Positions 9,590-62,042 of a stretch of 64,000 nucleotides of DNA are shown here, one piece after another. A program made the translations under genes and the position numbers. Positions within the stretch are counted from its first letter, which is position 1. Each line of letters opens with the position of its first letter. The DNA lies in contig JBGQBE010000001.1 in the NCBI GenBank assembly GCA_041494685.1, positions 62,001 through 126,000 on the forward strand. Reading direction: 5' to 3'. Under the pieces are notes generated by a model. That model had not been told where the DNA came from and did no database searches. It saw nothing but the letters and a program-made list of their open reading frames with translations. The DNA comes from Dehalococcoidia bacterium (lineage in GTDB: Bacteria; Chloroflexota; Dehalococcoidia; DSTF01; JACRBR01).

Positions 9590-9678
9590 TGGTACCGGGG
9601 GTGGGGCTCGAACCCACAAGCCGCCGAAGCGACGGCGGATTTTAAGTCCGCTGCGTTTGCCGATTTCGCCACCCCGGC
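9590..9678 (-). tRNA. tRNA-Leu (anticodon TAA)
   Basis: GCCGGGGTGGCGAAATCGGCAAACGCA-GCGGA CTTAAAA TCCGC-long variable arm-GTGGGTTCGAGCCCCAC-CCCCGGTACCA. Confidence 0.95.
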
Positions 9679-12696: not shown

Positions 12697-14022
12697 ATGC
12701 GATCGCTGATTAAAGACCCCAACTTCATCAAGTGGTTCTACTTCGGCATGCACATCAAGCGCTGGCTGTTGCTGCTGCTTGCCGGCGTCGCCATCATGGG
12801 CCTGGGATTCGGCTTCTTCCTCCGCGAGGTGTACGTCAACTACACCTTCCCGGCCTTCGTCTACTACCTCACGCTCCAATTCTTCCCCCGCTGGGCCCGG
12901 GGCGCGTTGTTCGTCGTCTCCAGCCTCGGCATCATCTCCTTCGCCGTCTGGAAGCTCAACCAGTCGCTGCTCTCCGCGTTCATCAAGCCGGAGCGCAACG
13001 AGAGCATCGTCGACATCATCTACAACCACCGCTACCTGCGGCGCGGCCCCAAGATCGTCGCCATCGGCGGCGGCACCGGGCTGTCGACGCTGCTCCGCGG
13101 CCTCAAGGAGTACACCGGCAACATCACCGCCATCGTCTCGATCGCCGATGACGGCGGCAGCAGCGGCCGCCTCCAGCGCGAACTGGGCGTGCTGCCGCCC
13201 GGCGACATCCGTAAGAACATCGCCGCACTGGCCGACGCCGAGCCGCTGATGTCGCGGCTCTTCGAGTATCGCTTCTCCGAGGGCGAAGGCCTGGAGGGCC
13301 ACAGCTTCGGCAACCTGTTCATCGTCGCCATGACGGAGGTCGCCGGCAACTTCGAAGAGGCCGTCCGCGAGACCAGCCGCGTCCTCGCGGTGCGCGGCCA
13401 GATCCTGCCCGCGACGCTCTCCGCGCTCACCATCTGCGCGCGCACCAACGACGGCGAGATCGTCCGCGGCGAGTCGGCGATCACCGAGCACGGCCACGTG
13501 AAAGAAGTCTTCCTCGACCCGGCGAATATCAAGGCGAACCCTGACGCCATCCGCGCCATCCTCCAGGCCGACATGATCATCTGCGGGCCCGGCAGCCTGC
13601 TCACGAGCGTGCTGCCGAACATGATGGTCGAAGGCATCCGCCGCGCCATCGAGACCTCGCCCGCACTCAAGGTCTACGTCTGCAACGTCGCGACGCAGCA
13701 CGGCGAGACGGACTCGTTCAAGGTCAGCGACCATGTGAAGGCGCTGAAGGAGCACCTCAAGGGCTCCCCGTTCGACTTCGTGCTGGCGAACAGCAACACC
13801 AACGCCACCCTCCCGGCCGAGTGGCACTCGGAGCCCGTGCAGGTCGACAGCACGGCGCTCGAGGGCGCCCGTGTCATGAAGGCGGACGTCGTCTCCGAGG
13901 AGAACCGCTACCGCCACGACTCCAAGAAGCTCGCCGATGCGCTCGTGCGCCTCTACTACGAGCGCAACCAGCTCAGCGAGGCCGAGCCCGCAACGCGCCG
14001 GGAGCCCGTCGGCGTCGGGTAG
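12697..14022 (+). CDS. yvcK: gluconeogenesis factor YvcK (UPF0052/CofD-related) with N-terminal membrane segment
   Basis: AIGGGTGLS, ADDGGSSGRL, PPGDIR, GHSFGNL, GPGSLLTSVLPN. Confidence 0.92.
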   Translation: MRSLIKDPNFIKWFYFGMHIKRWLLLLLAGVAIMGLGFGFFLREVYVNYTFPAFVYYLTLQFFPRWARGALFVVSSLGIISFAVWKLNQSLLSAFIKPERNESIVDIIYNHRYLRRGPKIVAIGGGTGLSTLLRGLKEYTGNITAIVSIADDGGSSGRLQRELGVLPPGDIRKNIAALADAEPLMSRLFEYRFSEGEGLEGHSFGNLFIVAMTEVAGNFEEAVRETSRVLAVRGQILPATLSALTICARTNDGEIVRGESAITEHGHVKEVFLDPANIKANPDAIRAILQADMIICGPGSLLTSVLPNMMVEGIRRAIETSPALKVYVCNVATQHGETDSFKVSDHVKALKEHLKGSPFDFVLANSNTNATLPAEWHSEPVQVDSTALEGARVMKADVVSEENRYRHDSKKLADALVRLYYERNQLSEAEPATRREPVGVG

Positions 14023-14045
14023 CGCGAGATCCCGCCAAGACGAAC

Positions 14046-14077
14046 AGGACGGCCGCCCGATGGGGCGGCCGTCCTGC
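14046..14077. terminator. GC-rich hairpin between convergent genes
   Basis: CAGGACGGCCGCCC-GATG-GGGCGGCCGTCCTG. Confidence 0.7.
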
Positions 14078-14103
14078 ATCTGCGATGCTCCCAGGCTACG
14101 GCG

Positions 14104-14805
14104 CTAGGCCGCCGTGCCGCCGCCGCGGGATCGATCGTCCCTCGCCAGCGCGCGCAACCCCGCGACCGCCATGTCGACAAGCTGCGGCGGCAACGCCCAC
14201 TCCCCCGGCGACCACCGCTCGAACGCGTGCAGCGCCGTGAAGTCGATCGAGTAGGTGTTGCGCCGCCCCTGCCGGTGGCGGACGATGATCCCGTCATGCT
14301 CCAGCTGGTTCAGAATCGCGACGACCGCGCGCTCCGTCACGCCCACGCCCACGGCCATCTCCCGCACGGTGCTGCCGCTGTCCATCGCGATGCTCAGGAG
14401 CAGGAGCGCGTGGTTCGTGAAGAATCCCCACGTCCCCATGCGCGGGTCCTGCGCGCCCGAATCCAGCGATTCCGGCGTGAGGCCGTTCGCGTCGCCTCCG
14501 TGGTAGTTGGAGATCGCCAGCAGCGTCTTGATCAGCGCGTCCACGAACTCCCGCGGCGTCAACGACGCCGTCCCCTCGCGGCGGTACGCCGCCAGCCGGT
14601 CGAAGTTCACCGCGTAGGTGTTCCGGCGCCCCTCGCGGCTCCGCTCGACGATCCCCTCTTCGCTCAGCTGCCGGAGGATCGCCAGCGTCGCGCGCTCCGT
14701 GACGCCCACGCCGGATGAGATCTCCCGCACCGTGGCGCCGTTGTGACGCACGACGTAGATGAGCACCAGTGCATGGTTGGTGAGGAAGCCCCACGTCTGC
14801 GTCAT
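14104..14805 (-). CDS. tandem winged-HTH (MarR/ArsR-like) regulator
   Basis: Two copies of TWGF(L/F)TNHAL...TVRE...VGVTERA...IL.QL...GI..R.R.GRRNTY. Confidence 0.85.
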   Translation of the reverse strand: MTQTWGFLTNHALVLIYVVRHNGATVREISSGVGVTERATLAILRQLSEEGIVERSREGRRNTYAVNFDRLAAYRREGTASLTPREFVDALIKTLLAISNYHGGDANGLTPESLDSGAQDPRMGTWGFFTNHALLLLSIAMDSGSTVREMAVGVGVTERAVVAILNQLEHDGIIVRHRQGRRNTYSIDFTALHAFERWSPGEWALPPQLVDMAVAGLRALARDDRSRGGGTAA

Positions 14806-14875
14806 ACCCCGTTCCCTCCTTGGAACCGTCTCGGCAGGTGCTGAAAAAGGGTCGAAAATTCGATGTCCAAAGTAC

Positions 14876-14903
14876 TTGACAGGTCGATTTCAGGAACTAC
14901 AAT
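14876..14903 (+). promoter_or_regulatory. sigma70-like promoter
   Basis: TTGACA-16 nt-TACAAT in an AT-rich intergenic region. Confidence 0.6.
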
Positions 14904-15067
14904 ACATGTATAGCCAATCAGGCTACTTGAATCACGTTACTTGGTTCATGTGGTGAATTTCACGAACCGATACACGTGTTATGGCAATCATCTCTCAGGC
15001 ATCATGCATTACCCTTCACGGATTTGCAAGACTTTGAGCTGCCATAACGCTACGAATTTCGAAAGAA

Positions 15068-15330
15068 GTGGGGCTGTCGCTGGGTCGAGGACGTGCGGAG
15101 GAGATCCCGCCACGCGCGGGGAACGGCGGCAGCGGATCCGAAAGGAGAGGGTCCCGGGAAGGAGCTGAGCCCGGCGAGTGCAAAATGCTTTGGTGGCAAC
15201 AAGGCGGGGGATTCGGCACTCAGGGCAAGGTTCCGGGGGCGGTTTGGCCGACCGCCCTTCCCTGCAGCATCATCGGTAGGTCGGTCCAAGGGAGGAACCG
15301 AGAGAGCCGGTCAGGAGGGCCGGCTTTTTC
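15068..15330 (+). ncRNA. candidate structured ncRNA of unknown class (may start near 14910)
   Basis: Series of hairpins and a + strand intrinsic terminator with no credible + strand CDS upstream. Confidence 0.45.
15304..15330 (+). terminator. intrinsic terminator
   Basis: GAGCCGGTC-AGGAG-GGCCGGCTTTTT. Confidence 0.7.
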
Positions 15331-15342
15331 GTGGCCCCGCTT

Positions 15343-16230
15343 CTACGCGCGCTTCGGACCGCCGCCCGCGGCCAGCACCGTGTTGTACAGCAGCATCGCC
15401 CGCGTCATCGGCCCGACGCCGCCCGGCACCGGCGTGATCGCCGACGCCTTCTCCGCCACGGCCGCGTAATCGACGTCGCCGACCAGCCGCGTGCCCTTCT
15501 TCTTCGTAGCGTCCGGTATCGCGTTGACGCCCACGTCGATGACGATCGCGCCTTCGCGCACCATGTCCGCGGTGATCGCGCCCGGCCGCCCCATCACCGC
15601 GATCAGGATGTCCGCCTGCCGCGTGAAGTGCGCGATATCCGGCGTGGCCGTGTGGCAGACCGTCACCGTGGCGTTGCCGCCGCGCCGCTTCTGCAGCAGC
15701 AGGCCCGCCAGCGGCTTCCCTACCAGGTTCGATCGCCCGCAGATCACGGCGTGCTTCCCGGCGGGATCGTGACCGGAGCGCAGGAGCATCTGCACCACTC
15801 CGTGCGGCGTGCAGCCGAGCAGCGCCGGCTCGCCCCGGAACAGCCGCCCCACGTTCGTCGGGTGCAGGCCGTCCACGTCCTTCTCGACCGCCACAGCGCC
15901 GGTGGCCGCCACCTCGTCGATGTGGTCCGGCAGCGGCAGCTGGACGATGATCCCGCTCCAGCGCGGGTCGGCGTTCAGCTCCGCGACGATTCGCAGCAGC
16001 TCCGCCTGCGAGGTCGTCGCCGGCAGCCGCACGGTGTCGGACCGCATCCCGACCTCCGCGGCGTCGCGCGTCTTCCCACGCACGTACGACACCGACGACG
16101 GATGCTCGCCCACCAGCACCACCGCCAGCCCCGGCTCGATGCCGCGCGCGCGCAGGCGCTCGACGTCCGCGCGGACCTCGTCGCGGACCTGCCGCGCGAT
16201 GGCGTTGCCGTCGATGACTGTGGCGGACAT
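15343..16230 (-). CDS. folD: methylenetetrahydrofolate dehydrogenase/cyclohydrolase
   Basis: YVRGK, GIIVQLPLP, KDVDGLHP, CTPHG, GRSNLVGKP, ITPVPGGVGPMT. Confidence 0.97.
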   Translation of the reverse strand: MSATVIDGNAIARQVRDEVRADVERLRARGIEPGLAVVLVGEHPSSVSYVRGKTRDAAEVGMRSDTVRLPATTSQAELLRIVAELNADPRWSGIIVQLPLPDHIDEVAATGAVAVEKDVDGLHPTNVGRLFRGEPALLGCTPHGVVQMLLRSGHDPAGKHAVICGRSNLVGKPLAGLLLQKRRGGNATVTVCHTATPDIAHFTRQADILIAVMGRPGAITADMVREGAIVIDVGVNAIPDATKKKGTRLVGDVDYAAVAEKASAITPVPGGVGPMTRAMLLYNTVLAAGGGPKRA

Positions 16231-16346
16231 GCTTCGCTCCGTCGCTACAAAGGGGCCGGCGGGCACATTCTACCGGCGCGCCCGCCCCGGCACAGCCCGC
16301 GCCGCCGCCGATACCGCATCCGGGCCCGCGCGCGTACAATCGCGGC

Positions 16347-16784
16347 ATGGAGATGGCCGTCGGCATCGACGTGATCGTCATCAGCCGCGTGGCGAAGGTG
16401 CTCGACAAGCACCCGGAGCGCTTCCTTCAGCGCGTCTATACGCCCGAGGAAGTGGCCTTTTGCCGCGGCCGCGTCCACGAGCTGGCAGCCCGCTTCGCCG
16501 CGAAAGAGGCGGTCATGAAGGCCCTGGGCACCGGCGCGCGCGGCCTCGCGTGGCGCGAGATCGAGGTGCTGCCGAACCGCCGCGGCAAGCCGCTCGTGTA
16601 CCTGCACGGCCTGGCGAAGCAGCGCGGCGAGGCCATCGGCCTGCAGGGCGTCGACATCAGCCTGACGCATGAAGGCGACCTCGCCATCGCGGTGGTCGTC
16701 GGCATGGCCAGCGACGCGCCCATCGATCGCGCCGCGCACCGTGCGGGCCTGGTCGAATGGCTGAAAGAGCAGGGACGGCTATGA
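16347..16784 (+). CDS. acpS: holo-ACP synthase
   Basis: GIDVI, LAARFAAKEAVMKALGTG, GKP, ISLTHE. Confidence 0.96.
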   Translation: MEMAVGIDVIVISRVAKVLDKHPERFLQRVYTPEEVAFCRGRVHELAARFAAKEAVMKALGTGARGLAWREIEVLPNRRGKPLVYLHGLAKQRGEAIGLQGVDISLTHEGDLAIAVVVGMASDAPIDRAAHRAGLVEWLKEQGRL

Positions 16785-18466
16785 AGCTCGTGACGGCTGC
16801 GCAGATGCGAGACCTTGAGCAGCAGGCGGTCGCCGCGGGAACTTCGCTCGACGCGTTGATGGAGGCCGCCGGGCTCGCCACGGCGCAGGAGGTGTGGCTG
16901 ACGCTCGGCGTCGTCGCCGGACGCCGCGTACTCGTGCTGTGCGGTCCCGGCAACAACGGCGGCGACGGCCTCGTGGCCGCGCGCCACCTGGCCGAATGGG
17001 ACGCCGACGTCTGCGTGTACCTGCTCGCGGAGCGCCCCGCTGACGATCCGAACCTCGCGCGCGTCCGTGAGCTCGGCGTGCCCGTCTTCGCCGCTCCCAC
17101 CGACGCCGGCTACGCCGCGCTCGACGACGCCCTCTCCGGCGCGGAGATAGTCGTCGATGCGCTGCTGGGAACAGGCCGCAGCCGCCCGGCCGAGGGCGCG
17201 CTCGCGGAGGTGCTGACGCAGCTGCGCGCGGCGAGCGCACGTCCGCGCCCGCCGAAGGTGATCGCCGTCGATCTGCCGACCGGCGTGGACGCCGACTCCG
17301 GCCGCGCCGACCCGCTGGCCGTGCGCGCCGACCTCACCGTCACGTTCGGGCTCGCGAAGGTCGGCCTCTACACGCTGCCCGGCTCCGAGTACGCCGGCCG
17401 CATCCAGGTCGTTGACATCGGCATCCCGAAGGAGGCCGAGCGCGCGGTGCCGCTGGACCTGCTGGGCATCTCCTGGGTGCGCGAGCGGCTGCCGCAGCGC
17501 CCGATGGCATCGAACAAGGGGACCTTCGGCCGCGTGCTCGTCGTCGCCGGCTCGCGGCAGTACGCCGGCGCGGCGCGGCTGGCGGCCGAGGCCTGCTACC
17601 GCGCCGGCGCCGGCCTCGTCACCATCGCCTGCCCGGCCAGCGTGCAGCCGCTGATCGCGCCCGCGCTGGCGGAGGCGACCTGGCTGCCGCTGCCCGAGAC
17701 GGACGGCGCCCTCAGCGAGCGCGCCGCGGCCCTGATCCGCGAGCGCCTCGCCGCCTACGACGTGCTGCTCATCGGCCCCGGCCTCACGCAAGCGGACAGC
17801 ACGCACCAGTGCGTGATCGACGTCCTGAAAGCGCCGCCGCCGAACGTGCGCGCGGCGGTGATCGATGCCGACGCGCTCAACGTGCTGCCCGTCGACCCGA
17901 ACTGGCGCGGCCGCGCGCGCGCCGAGAACGTCCACGTCCCGAACTGGCACACGCGCATCGGATTGCCCGCCGTGCTGACGCCTCACCCCGGCGAGATGGC
18001 GCGACTCCTCGGCAGCACCGTCGCGGACGTGCAGGCCGACCGCCTGGCCGCGGCGACGAAGGCCGCCGCCGACTGGCAGCAGGTCATCGTGCTGAAGGGC
18101 GCGCACACCGTCATCGCCGCTCCCGACGGGCGCGCGGCGATCAGCCCGTACGCGACGCCCCTGCTCGCGACCGCCGGCACCGGCGACGTGCTCGCAGGCA
18201 CCATCGCCGGCCTGCTGGCGCAGGGCGCCGACCCGTTCGACGCGGCGGGCTGCGGCGTCTACCTGCACGGCATGGCGGCGGAGGAGATCGGCGAGGAGAT
18301 GGGCGACCGCGGCATGCTCGCCGGCGACTTGCTGCGCGAGATCCCGCGCGCCATCCGCACCGTGCTGCACGGCCGCCCGTCGCGCGGCGCACCCGCCCTC
18401 GGCGGCCTCGGCGACCTCGCCGCGGCCTTCGGCGCAGGCGGCGCGCTGCCGCCCGACCTGGCGTAG
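16781..18466 (+). CDS. nnr: bifunctional NAD(P)H-hydrate epimerase/dehydratase
   Basis: CGPGNNGGDG, DALLGTG, DLPTG, NKGTFG, DADALN, TPHPGE, TAGTGDVLAG. Confidence 0.95.
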   Translation: MKLVTAAQMRDLEQQAVAAGTSLDALMEAAGLATAQEVWLTLGVVAGRRVLVLCGPGNNGGDGLVAARHLAEWDADVCVYLLAERPADDPNLARVRELGVPVFAAPTDAGYAALDDALSGAEIVVDALLGTGRSRPAEGALAEVLTQLRAASARPRPPKVIAVDLPTGVDADSGRADPLAVRADLTVTFGLAKVGLYTLPGSEYAGRIQVVDIGIPKEAERAVPLDLLGISWVRERLPQRPMASNKGTFGRVLVVAGSRQYAGAARLAAEACYRAGAGLVTIACPASVQPLIAPALAEATWLPLPETDGALSERAAALIRERLAAYDVLLIGPGLTQADSTHQCVIDVLKAPPPNVRAAVIDADALNVLPVDPNWRGRARAENVHVPNWHTRIGLPAVLTPHPGEMARLLGSTVADVQADRLAAATKAAADWQQVIVLKGAHTVIAAPDGRAAISPYATPLLATAGTGDVLAGTIAGLLAQGADPFDAAGCGVYLHGMAAEEIGEEMGDRGMLAGDLLREIPRAIRTVLHGRPSRGAPALGGLGDLAAAFGAGGALPPDLA

Positions 18467-48556: not shown

Positions 48557-48633
48557 TGGTCGGGGCGACAGGATTTGAACCTGCGACCTCCTGACCCCCA
48601 GTCAGGTGCGCTACCGGGCTGCGCTACGCCCCG
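48557..48633 (-). tRNA. tRNA-Pro (anticodon GGG)
   Basis: CGGGGCGTAGCGCAGCCCGGTAGCGCA-CCTGA CTGGGGG TCAGG-AGGTCGCAGGTTCAAATCCTGTCGCCCCGACCA. Confidence 0.96.
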
Positions 48634-61019: not shown

Positions 61020-62042
61020 GTGCCGAACAAACCGAAGTACTGGGGCGTCATCTCATCGCTCCCCGCGCCGTTCCTCACCGCGCAGGCGCAGCAGCTGGAA
61101 TCGCTGGGGCTCGAGGGCATCTTCGCGCCGCAGGTCTACGGCCCCCCGTTCGTGCCGCTCGCCGCCGCCGCCGCCGTCACCCAGCGCGTGCGCCTCGCCA
61201 CGGGCATCGCTCTGGCGTTCGCGCGCAGCCCGTTCGAGACGGCCGCCGCCGCGATGGACCTGGACCGCATCAGCAACGGCCGCTTCACGCTCGGCCTCGG
61301 CACCAGCGTCAAGGCGTGGAGCGAGGGCTTCTTCGGCATGGAGTACGGCAAGCCAGTCGCCCACATGCGCGAGGTGATCGACATCGTCCGCACGGTGATC
61401 GCGAAGGCGCACACCGGCGAGCTGACGCGCTACGACGGCCAGTACCACCACCTGGACTTCAGCGAGTTCAACCCGCTCGGCGCGCCGCTGCGCACCGAGA
61501 TCCCGGTCTGGATCGCCGCGCTGCGCACGCCCCTGATCCGCCTCGCTGGCGAGATCGCGGACGGCGTCATCGGCCACCCGATCTGGTCGATCGACTGGGC
61601 GACGACGAAGGTGATGGACGACCTGAAGGCGGGGCTGGCGAAGGGCGGCCGCGCGCGCGGCGACATCGAATTCAACATGTGGCTGTTCGTCGCGCCGAAC
61701 GACGACCCGAAGCAGGCCATCGAGGACGCGCGCGCGACGGTGGCGTTCTACGGCGGCGTCGGGCAGTACGAGGAGTACTTCGCCGCGCACGGCTTCCGCC
61801 GCGAGGCGCAGGCGCTGCAGGAAGGCGTGCGCCGCGGCGACTACCTCTCGGTGAAGCACCTGGTCAGCGACGAGATGGCGCGGACCTTCGTCGTGTGCGG
61901 CAAGCCGGACGACGTGCGGACGCGCGTCATGCGGATCTGGGAGCACGCCGACTCCGCGACCCTCGGCCCTCCGGTCTACGGACTCGACCCCGGCGCCATT
62001 CTCCGCTACGGCGCGAAGATCGCGGAGCTGTTCTACGGGTGA
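61020..62042 (+). CDS. LLM-class flavin/F420 oxidoreductase
   Basis: LATGIALAFARSP, GRFTLGLGT, AGEIADG. Confidence 0.9.
   Translation: MPNKPKYWGVISSLPAPFLTAQAQQLESLGLEGIFAPQVYGPPFVPLAAAAAVTQRVRLATGIALAFARSPFETAAAAMDLDRISNGRFTLGLGTSVKAWSEGFFGMEYGKPVAHMREVIDIVRTVIAKAHTGELTRYDGQYHHLDFSEFNPLGAPLRTEIPVWIAALRTPLIRLAGEIADGVIGHPIWSIDWATTKVMDDLKAGLAKGGRARGDIEFNMWLFVAPNDDPKQAIEDARATVAFYGGVGQYEEYFAAHGFRREAQALQEGVRRGDYLSVKHLVSDEMARTFVVCGKPDDVRTRVMRIWEHADSATLGPPVYGLDPGAILRYGAKIAELFYG

Follow-up and report, generated by a model that had tools for sequence, protein, structure and literature searches.

Small RNAs that are encoded divergently from the gene of their regulator are a well-known arrangement in enterobacteria, where a transcription factor is paired in this way with a small RNA in oxyR/oxyS, gcvA/gcvB and sgrR/sgrS. 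Dehalococcoidia of soil and sediment are abundant and nearly all uncultured, and to our knowledge nothing has been described about their regulatory RNAs. Here we report a locus of a Dehalococcoidia bacterium (assembly GCA_041494685.1) in which a structured RNA is predicted back to back with the gene of a tandem winged-helix (tandem-wHTH) regulator. The window, i.e. the whole stretch of DNA that was analysed, comprises 64,000 nucleotides (positions 62,001 to 126,000 of contig JBGQBE010000001.1), and all coordinates are counted from its first letter.

The locus has in common with the enterobacterial pairs that a non-coding RNA is found back to back with a regulator gene, that the candidate sites are located in the shared intergenic region, and that the RNA closes in a hairpin with no ORF downstream of it. 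It differs from them in that the RNA is three to four times longer, is junctioned and contains invariant unpaired stretches, that the regulator is a tandem-wHTH protein, and that the sites are organized as a 14-bp phased array of 9-13 slots reaching approximately 110 bp into the transcript. A further difference is that the predicted promoters overlap, so that the two transcripts would be mutually antisense.

Overlapping, opposed transcription units with an HTH repressor and an antisense RNA are known from prgQ/prgX of pCF10. The likeness is that the repressor gene and the RNA unit would be transcribed through each other's start regions, allowing interference or antisense pairing; the difference is that our locus is chromosomal, with housekeeping surroundings and no peptide signalling genes, and that its overlap is a predicted one. 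For the Omega repressor of pSM19035, heptad WATCACW repeats over promoters have been described. They resemble the words reported here in being short repeats of the same sense with a similar core (ATCAC), placed over promoters and variable in copy number, whereas our period is 14 bp and not 7, the protein is of the winged-helix and not the ribbon-helix-helix type, and the array lies mostly downstream of the start. Like raiA, OLE, ROOL, GOLLD and HEARO, the RNA is a conserved, complex, stand-alone bacterial RNA and an orphan; it matches none of them even at E values up to 10, and its spread is much narrower, being confined to one family.

As the best explanation, which we consider rather probable, we propose that the locus contains a new stand-alone structured ncRNA gene of approximately 430 nt that is gated by the back-to-back regulator, and that it is organized in two parts, a control region acting at the DNA level (14890-15065) and the functional RNA proper (15134-15330). 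The full-text literature, as far as it was covered, yielded no published account of such an RNA in Chloroflexi or Dehalococcoidia, and measured against that part of the literature three features appear to be new: the RNA family, an operator array that is phased at 14 bp and for the most part transcribed, and two promoters that are predicted to overlap. With one RNA and one regulator, the locus offers a clean pair that lends itself to testing. Its operator grammar is unusually regular, with a 14-bp period and promoters shifted only by whole units, and one purified protein could suffice to study it in vitro. The conserved RNA core of 130 nt with its invariant unpaired stretches is of a kind that has repeatedly been found to bind a ligand or a protein.

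Genomic context and extent of the predicted RNA

The RNA stretch is located in a gap of 537 bp (14806-15342) between the minus-strand gene of the regulator (14104-14805, 233 residues) and the 3' end of folD (15343-16266, minus strand). Pfam confirmed FolD as the downstream neighbour as well as CofD/YvcK upstream of the gap. The neighbourhood appears housekeeping-like, with gatB, a yvcK/CofD-like gene, folD, an acpS-like ORF and a long NnrD/NnrE-like ORF, these names being taken from the translations only; the plus-strand ORFs at 16757-18466 and 16347-16784 belong to the same surroundings. No mobile-element or phage genes were noticed near the RNA. Apart from two tRNA genes on the minus strand (9593-9678, with a long variable arm, and 48560-48633), the window contains no Rfam match.

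The GC content is 0.40-0.46 in 14850-15050, compared to approximately 0.70 in the flanks, which agrees with the AT-rich stretch that an earlier, sequence-only reading of this DNA had placed after the promoter. It returns to 0.65-0.67 in 15050-15300, where a strong excess of G over C is found. The AT-rich island is followed by approximately 270 nt of G-rich sequence closing in a hairpin at 15300-15330. The locus is present in a single copy in the 3.29-Mb assembly.

A promoter of the form TTGACA-16-TACAAT (P_RNA, 14876-14903, plus strand) had been noted before and is borne out by the promoter scan, in which it is the sole sigma-70-like site in 14000-16500 compared to 0.1 sites in shuffles. It is nearly invariant in an alignment of 20 genomes and was recognised in 54 out of 55 loci. 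Transcription from this site would start at approximately 14909-14911. The RNA would then span 14906-15333 on the plus strand, with an extent taken from the alignments and a length of approximately 420-430 nt (358-511 nt among the homologues).

The terminator that had been assumed at the plus-strand end was retained in one respect and lost in another. The terminator-like hairpin itself (15300-15330) exists and is conserved, with 12 pairs of which several are compensated, and its loop word (C)AGGAGG is kept in all sequences listed. The terminator scan reports 0 sites at the locus; the hairpin fails the T-run rule, and its T run mostly forms the 3' side of the stem.

Neither at the gathering score nor at E values up to 10 did Rfam give a match in the region, save for a match to the model of a human lncRNA that is due to chance, which is in agreement with the suggestion of an RNA class outside Rfam. 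RNase P RNA (C43, 287.5 bits), tmRNA (C13, 124.6 bits) and SRP RNA (C42, 76.2 bits) were all found elsewhere in the genome; the sequence-only reading had seen no signatures of these RNAs here. The 6S model RF00013 found nothing in the genome, but this model is insensitive and detects its RNA in only 5 out of 14 control genomes. 6S RNA was rejected as a candidate on account of its shape: a single rod of approximately 150-200 nt with a central bubble, compared to a junctioned fold of approximately 430 nt.

Distribution and conservation

By blastn the stretch was recovered with 67-75% DNA identity over approximately 480 nt in 19 out of the 24 other genomes of the family, and in none of the 16 genomes from four sister families. 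With a covariance model built on the 3' core it was found in 28 out of 35 family genomes, in 0 out of 57 genomes of four other families of the order, and in 0 out of 146 further genomes of the class. These tallies include G021, a genome flagged as unpublished, on which no claim rests. The order yvcK, regulator, RNA stretch, folD and acpS is mostly kept in the fetched loci. With identities of 66-91% among the proteins on either side, the conservation of the gap is similar to that of the genes. All homologues stem from one family, and they are therefore not independent.

A 21-base pattern from the 5' half retrieved 27 species-representative records, all of them titled uncultured Dehalococcoidia, Chloroflexota or Chloroflexia MAGs, and also 33 metagenome contigs; in viral contigs neither this pattern nor a 3' pattern was present. 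Removal of duplicates, of short pieces (4 loci) and of one chance match (L056, 42% identity and without promoter) left 55 distinct loci. L017, L075 and L076 were excluded by the end-finding pattern, and L051, L055, L060 and L081 were excluded due to one missing anchor. The architectural outliers L016, L020, L035, L043 and L061 were kept outside the arm test and the seed alignment, and the model recovered all of them but L020.

The 233-residue protein is the conserved partner of the RNA. Pfam places TrmB, MarR_2 and HTH_24 at residues 6-64 and HTH_Crp_2 and PaaX at residues 146-193, so that the tandem-wHTH architecture previously proposed for it is found in two separate wHTH stretches. The regulator adjoins the RNA in 20 out of 20 loci, and matches to it at E<1e-90 are confined to the family that carries the RNA. 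Paralogues with 47-57% identity occur in the same genomes, and the other families of the order have single-domain relatives only. In G018 and G047, as in the case of the orthologue in G016, the regulator is located next to folD without the RNA. This indicates that the RNA needs the regulator and not the reverse.

In G016 the RNA adjoins a paralogue of the regulator. The diverged copy (L110, G016:C17:53022-56135) is a shortened RNA beside a 51%-identical paralogue; of the elements described below it retains the G run, H4, the C/U strand and the AGGAGG loop, together with the promoter and four phased words, and the rest of the 5' half is gone. The regulator orthologue of G016 that adjoins folD without RNA is 65% identical. 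Apparently, the unit of RNA and regulator can move or be replaced.

A conserved fold in the 3' part

The stretch 15134-15267 is a genuine RNA fold of the plus strand. RNAalifold on the full MAFFT alignment returned fragments only, the variable arms being misaligned, and mutual information with APC was swamped by phylogenetic noise. For these reasons an arm-partner test and a model-based alignment were adopted. In the model-based alignment (55 matches from 56 sources, 53 distinct sequences), which is fitted to the structure and leans towards it, covariation amounts to 0.300 compared to 0.156 in shuffles; 0 out of 500 shuffles were as high, and slid structures gave 0.101 at most. There, 25 out of 38 pairs change on both sides, and 85.4% of the cells pair compared to 76.1% in shuffles. 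Due to this leaning the alignment-free arm test was run, in which the strands of 39 long arms were combined with their own partner (-26.2 kcal/mol), with a distant foreign partner (-15.5 kcal/mol) or with shuffled strands (-13.2 kcal/mol). A plain MAFFT alignment of 39 sequences gives a covariation of 0.150 compared to 0.112 in shuffles; again none of 500 shuffles reached this value, and slid structures stayed at or below 0.097.

The strand follows from two observations. The 3' part folds at z -2.59 on the plus strand compared to -0.34 on the minus strand, and G-U pairs are frequent, occurring in 41, 38, 28 and 19 sequences at four pairs. The conserved promoter, the covarying fold and the conserved end hairpin together support the independent plus-strand ncRNA that the sequence-only reading had suggested.

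The core begins with helix H1 (GGAUCC/GGGUCC, 15134-15139/15149-15154), in which U-G changes to C-G in 9 sequences. Its loop GAAAGGAGA occupies 15140-15148, and the helix leads into the nearly invariant GGGUCCCGGG. Next comes H2, a long interrupted arm (15161-15234) recognised by its own-partner energies and its covariation. It carries a tip hairpin GCUUUG-GUGGCAA-CAAGGC (15187-15205) and an invariant G run (15206-15210). H4 (GGGGCGGU/ACCGCCCU, loop UUGGCCG, 15236-15258) is paired in 100% of the cells, with 4 out of 8 pairs changing on both sides. In helices 2-5 all 18 pairs show some two-sided changes, except for one that never varies. The C/U-rich stretch CCCUUCCCUGCAG (15255-15267) is nearly invariant, and a loosely conserved tail separates it from the end hairpin. 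Between the 5' half and the core lies a GC-rich hairpin region (15073-15133) of variable length, 14-227 nt among the homologues. Its outer stem GCTGTCGCTG/CGGCGGCAGC (15073-15082/15124-15133) had been drawn before and is indeed present in this genome, with weak support across the homologues (mean z -1.08, 12 out of 41 below -1.5).

The other hairpins drawn from the single sequence fared unequally. GAGTGC/GCACTC belongs to the covarying long arm. TCC-GAAA-GGA sits in the loop of the better kept GGAUCC/GGGUCC helix and is superseded by it, CCGGG/CCCGG is peculiar to this genome, and GGTTCC pairs with GGAGC (15161-15165) instead of GGAACC. Additional pairings were considered and rejected. Pairing of GGGAAG (15156-15161) with CCCUUCCCUGCAG would be possible, but is left uncompensated when AAG changes to UUG or UAG; by eye no compensating changes were seen for GGGAAG/CUUCCC, nor for a kissing of the H3 and H4 loops.

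Possible function of the RNA and the role of CsrA

We commit ourselves to a regulator-gated RNA whose 3' domain would act in trans by binding a protein or a ligand. Its functional parts would be the first hairpin, the long covarying arm with the G run, the second hairpin, the C/U strand and the end hairpin with AGGAGG. CsrA is the only candidate that we can name as a partner, and a doubtful one.

According to the latter idea, which had been brought forward in the sequence-only reading, the RNA would be a sponge of the CsrB/Rsm type, in which CsrA dimers would be captured by loops carrying GGA, namely GAAAGGAGA (15140-15148), (C)AGGAGG (15311-15319) and additional A(N)GGA words, so that their mRNA targets are released. 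With CsrB, CsrC and RsmX/Y/Z the RNA shares that it stands alone, that GGA is found in hairpin loops including the one of the end hairpin, and that CsrA is encoded in the genome: the search for csrA, which had been recommended, revealed two genes with matches over the Pfam cut-off (C4 and C28). In the end loop, CAGGAGG is similar to the CAGGA(N)G repeats known from CsrB. Good conservation is seen for two GGA loops, and AGGA occurs mildly above expectation (3.7 compared to 2.2, mean z 1.15 over 52 homologues). FliW was not found in this 97.6% complete genome, and neither was Hfq; moreover, in many genomes of the order one csrA gene has a single-domain relative of the regulator as its back-to-back neighbour. 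As CsrA is encoded and FliW was not found in this genome, the locus provides one concrete candidate for a CsrA antagonist in the phylum.

The count of approximately twelve GGA triplets, several of them in loops, on which the argument was built is correct as such, since 12 are found in 15060-15333, but a count of this size is expected from the composition: GGA is not enriched in the 52 homologues (10.4 compared to 9.9 in dinucleotide shuffles, mean z 0.25). The GGA of the H1 loop is missing in 2 out of 39 homologues. The large fold is unrelated to GGA, and CsrA binding leaves the invariant GGGUCCCGGG, the G run, the UUGGCCG loop and CCCUUCCCUGCAG unexplained. Furthermore, csrA is present in 90 out of 93 genomes of the order, whereas the RNA is confined to one family, and no Rfam family of the Csr/Rsm type gives a match. 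These points distinguish the RNA, with its approximately two conserved GGA loops, from the known sponges and leave the original argument unsupported. We consider a CsrA sponge improbable, though it fares best among the alternatives to our reading.

Base pairing with mRNAs was also looked at. Sites complementary to CCCUUCCCUGCAG and GGGUCCCGGGAAG with up to two mismatches occur beside start codons in 61 and 81 cases, respectively, and none of them is perfect or compelling.

The 5' half as a putative phased control region

The 5' half contains words of the form WWTCA(C/G/T)G that are arranged in a phased array (14890-15021) with TCA at positions 14890+14k. In this genome 8 out of 10 slots are filled (k=0, 2, 3, 4, 5, 7, 8 and 9), and no second phased array exists in the 3.29-Mb genome. 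The word at k=0 is located inside the spacer of P_RNA, and the one at k=8 coincides with the predicted -10 element of the regulator promoter. Among the loci 5-10 exact words are in phase, distributed over 9-13 slots, and the array extends approximately 110 bp into the transcribed region. In 53 out of 54 loci the -10 element of P_RNA is found at -48, -62, -76, -90 or -104 from a fixed anchor, i.e. in steps of 14 bp. This quantised offset indicates that array units are gained or lost as a whole while the promoter stays in register. In 45 out of 54 loci a word precedes the -10 element by 8 nt, within the untranscribed promoter spacer.

The predicted regulator promoter (P_reg, 15001-15029, minus strand) consists of TTGCAA (15029-15024) and CATGAT (15006-15001) separated by 17 bp. 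It was not listed by the promoter scan, because it scores 8 out of 12 against the consensus. The corresponding pattern TCAT[GC]-N17/18-TNNCAA, which reads TTGNNA-17/18-(C/G)ATGA on the minus strand, occurs in 49 out of 55 RNA loci compared to 7 out of 3200 shuffled sequences. Among 16 loci that contain a paralogue, or an orthologue without RNA, it is found in 12; the other 4, including this genome's own paralogue on C7, lack it. We take this pattern for the putative promoter of the regulators themselves. The distal part of the region (TTCACGAA, TGTTAT, TCA.., TCATGCA, TTCAC and TTGCAA) is found again, with its order unchanged, in front of tandem-wHTH paralogues without an RNA as well as in front of regulator orthologues whose RNA is missing.

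The array would accordingly serve as the operator and promoter region of the regulator, which happens to be transcribed. If P_reg is real, it should fire leftwards from approximately 14994 through the array and P_RNA, and the two transcripts would overlap by approximately 85 nt. The tandem-wHTH protein might bind along the array and thereby gate both promoters, and transcription of the RNA would read antisense through the promoter and the leader of the regulator. Control by the adjacent regulator, as had been suspected, is favoured by the phased array spanning the promoter and by the related words upstream of the paralogous regulator genes.

The AT-rich stems that had been described for this part could not be upheld as conserved RNA structure. 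They fold well in this one sequence (z -3.28), but over 52 homologues RNAalifold found no shared structure in 14906-15070, and their covariation (0.135) is not above that of the controls, with 0.117 in shuffles, 48 out of 500 shuffles as high and up to 0.111 when slid. They are better read as operator and promoter words at the DNA level. The single-genome z and the fact that the long stem of the 5' half is paired in approximately 75% of the cells leave some room for a role at the RNA level.

One such role would be that of an unstructured leader on which several RNA-binding proteins, possibly the wHTH protein itself, land and are titrated. In keeping with such a platform, all words have the same orientation and are part of the transcribed strand, no conserved secondary structure is found in the leader, and the copy number of the words varies among the genomes (9-13 slots). 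Against it, one in-phase word lies in the untranscribed promoter spacer in 45 out of 54 loci, and related words precede paralogous regulator genes at which the RNA is missing. The best family matches of the regulator are in addition DNA-binding wHTH families. We regard this possibility as quite unlikely, less likely than the sponge.

The proposed DNA-level control could be extended to a toggle of two promoters, a speculative variant to which we give little probability. Here the wHTH repressor on the array would shut P_RNA, the antisense RNA would shut the repressor, and the 3' fold would provide the input or output of the toggle as a new class of module that binds a ligand or a protein such as CsrA. 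The transcribed operator words might themselves titrate the repressor.

Sensor and no-RNA readings

The fold is complex and junctioned, contains invariant stretches that are unpaired and is followed by a hairpin, and in this it is also reminiscent of a riboswitch-like sensor, in which the end hairpin would choose between a stop and antisense read-on into the convergent folD-acpS. Antisense RNAs controlled by riboswitches are known from other bacteria, and folD is convergent in most loci. It is not always the neighbour, however: in G011 a convergent oxidoreductase-like ORF and in G007 a co-directional RidA-like ORF takes its place, and for this reason a folD-antisense riboswitch is unlikely. 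By eye no convincing alternative pairing with the end hairpin was seen, and THF, ZTP and other riboswitch families gave no match. Altogether we would give the sensor hardly any weight. A cis-regulatory leader of a co-directional gene was rejected, the next gene being convergent in most loci and a different one in G011 and G007.

That there is no functional RNA at all, the block being DNA-level regulatory sequence or the coding gene of a 133-residue protein (15068-15469), is the least probable reading and is largely refuted by the arm test, the covariation and the frame analysis: although the 5' half does resemble DNA-level control sequence and the ORF is open in this genome, the compensatory changes and G-U pairs of the 3' half make sense only in a plus-strand RNA, and the frame, whose conservation as protein had been named as an argument against an RNA, is not kept, with distances between two invariant blocks of 0, 1 and 2 modulo 3 in 9, 20 and 15 out of 44 homologues and a stop in the frame of the ORF in 26 out of 44.

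Signals in RNA libraries

RNA libraries yielded sequence from relatives of the locus rather than from the locus itself. Six RNA library runs contained only 0.04 of the sampled words, and the best DNA run, which may stem from the source sample, contained all of them. Four RNA runs were compared at 80% likeness, and three of them, from three studies, each yielded one short contig of a relative (15185-15267, 15185-15282 and 15185-15285) with 10-13 differences, one of them at a depth of 42.6; the fourth run yielded none within the RNA stretch. These contigs, whose strand and ends are unreadable and which may include DNA contamination, are compatible with expression in relatives and prove nothing on strand, ends or this genome; the absent cover over 14736-15177 is in itself no finding. 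In run X19 (15185-15293) the contig with depth 42.6, 154 nt in length, enters adapter sequence 11 nt beyond 15282. A common end of many fragments near this position is thus possible, while contigs of this kind cannot prove the end of an RNA.

Related regulator genes in this genome

Two further loci of this genome contain relatives of the regulator. At C7:45904-46830 a tandem-wHTH paralogue with 57% identity is divergent from an aconitase-like ORF. The words GATTCAGG, CTTCACCTGTTATGC and CTTCATGG upstream of it are array-like, and a tandem-wHTH paralogue beside the start of an aconitase-like ORF was also observed in at least three other genomes. At C28:2352-3019 one of the two csrA genes is located back to back with a single-domain wHTH gene, a pairing shared by many genomes of the order. 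The encoded wHTH protein is 56% identical to residues 2-83 of the regulator. In the 267-bp spacer between both genes, TTGACA-17-CTAACT is found along with repeats of ATTACCGG, and the leader of the wHTH gene contains several GGA words.
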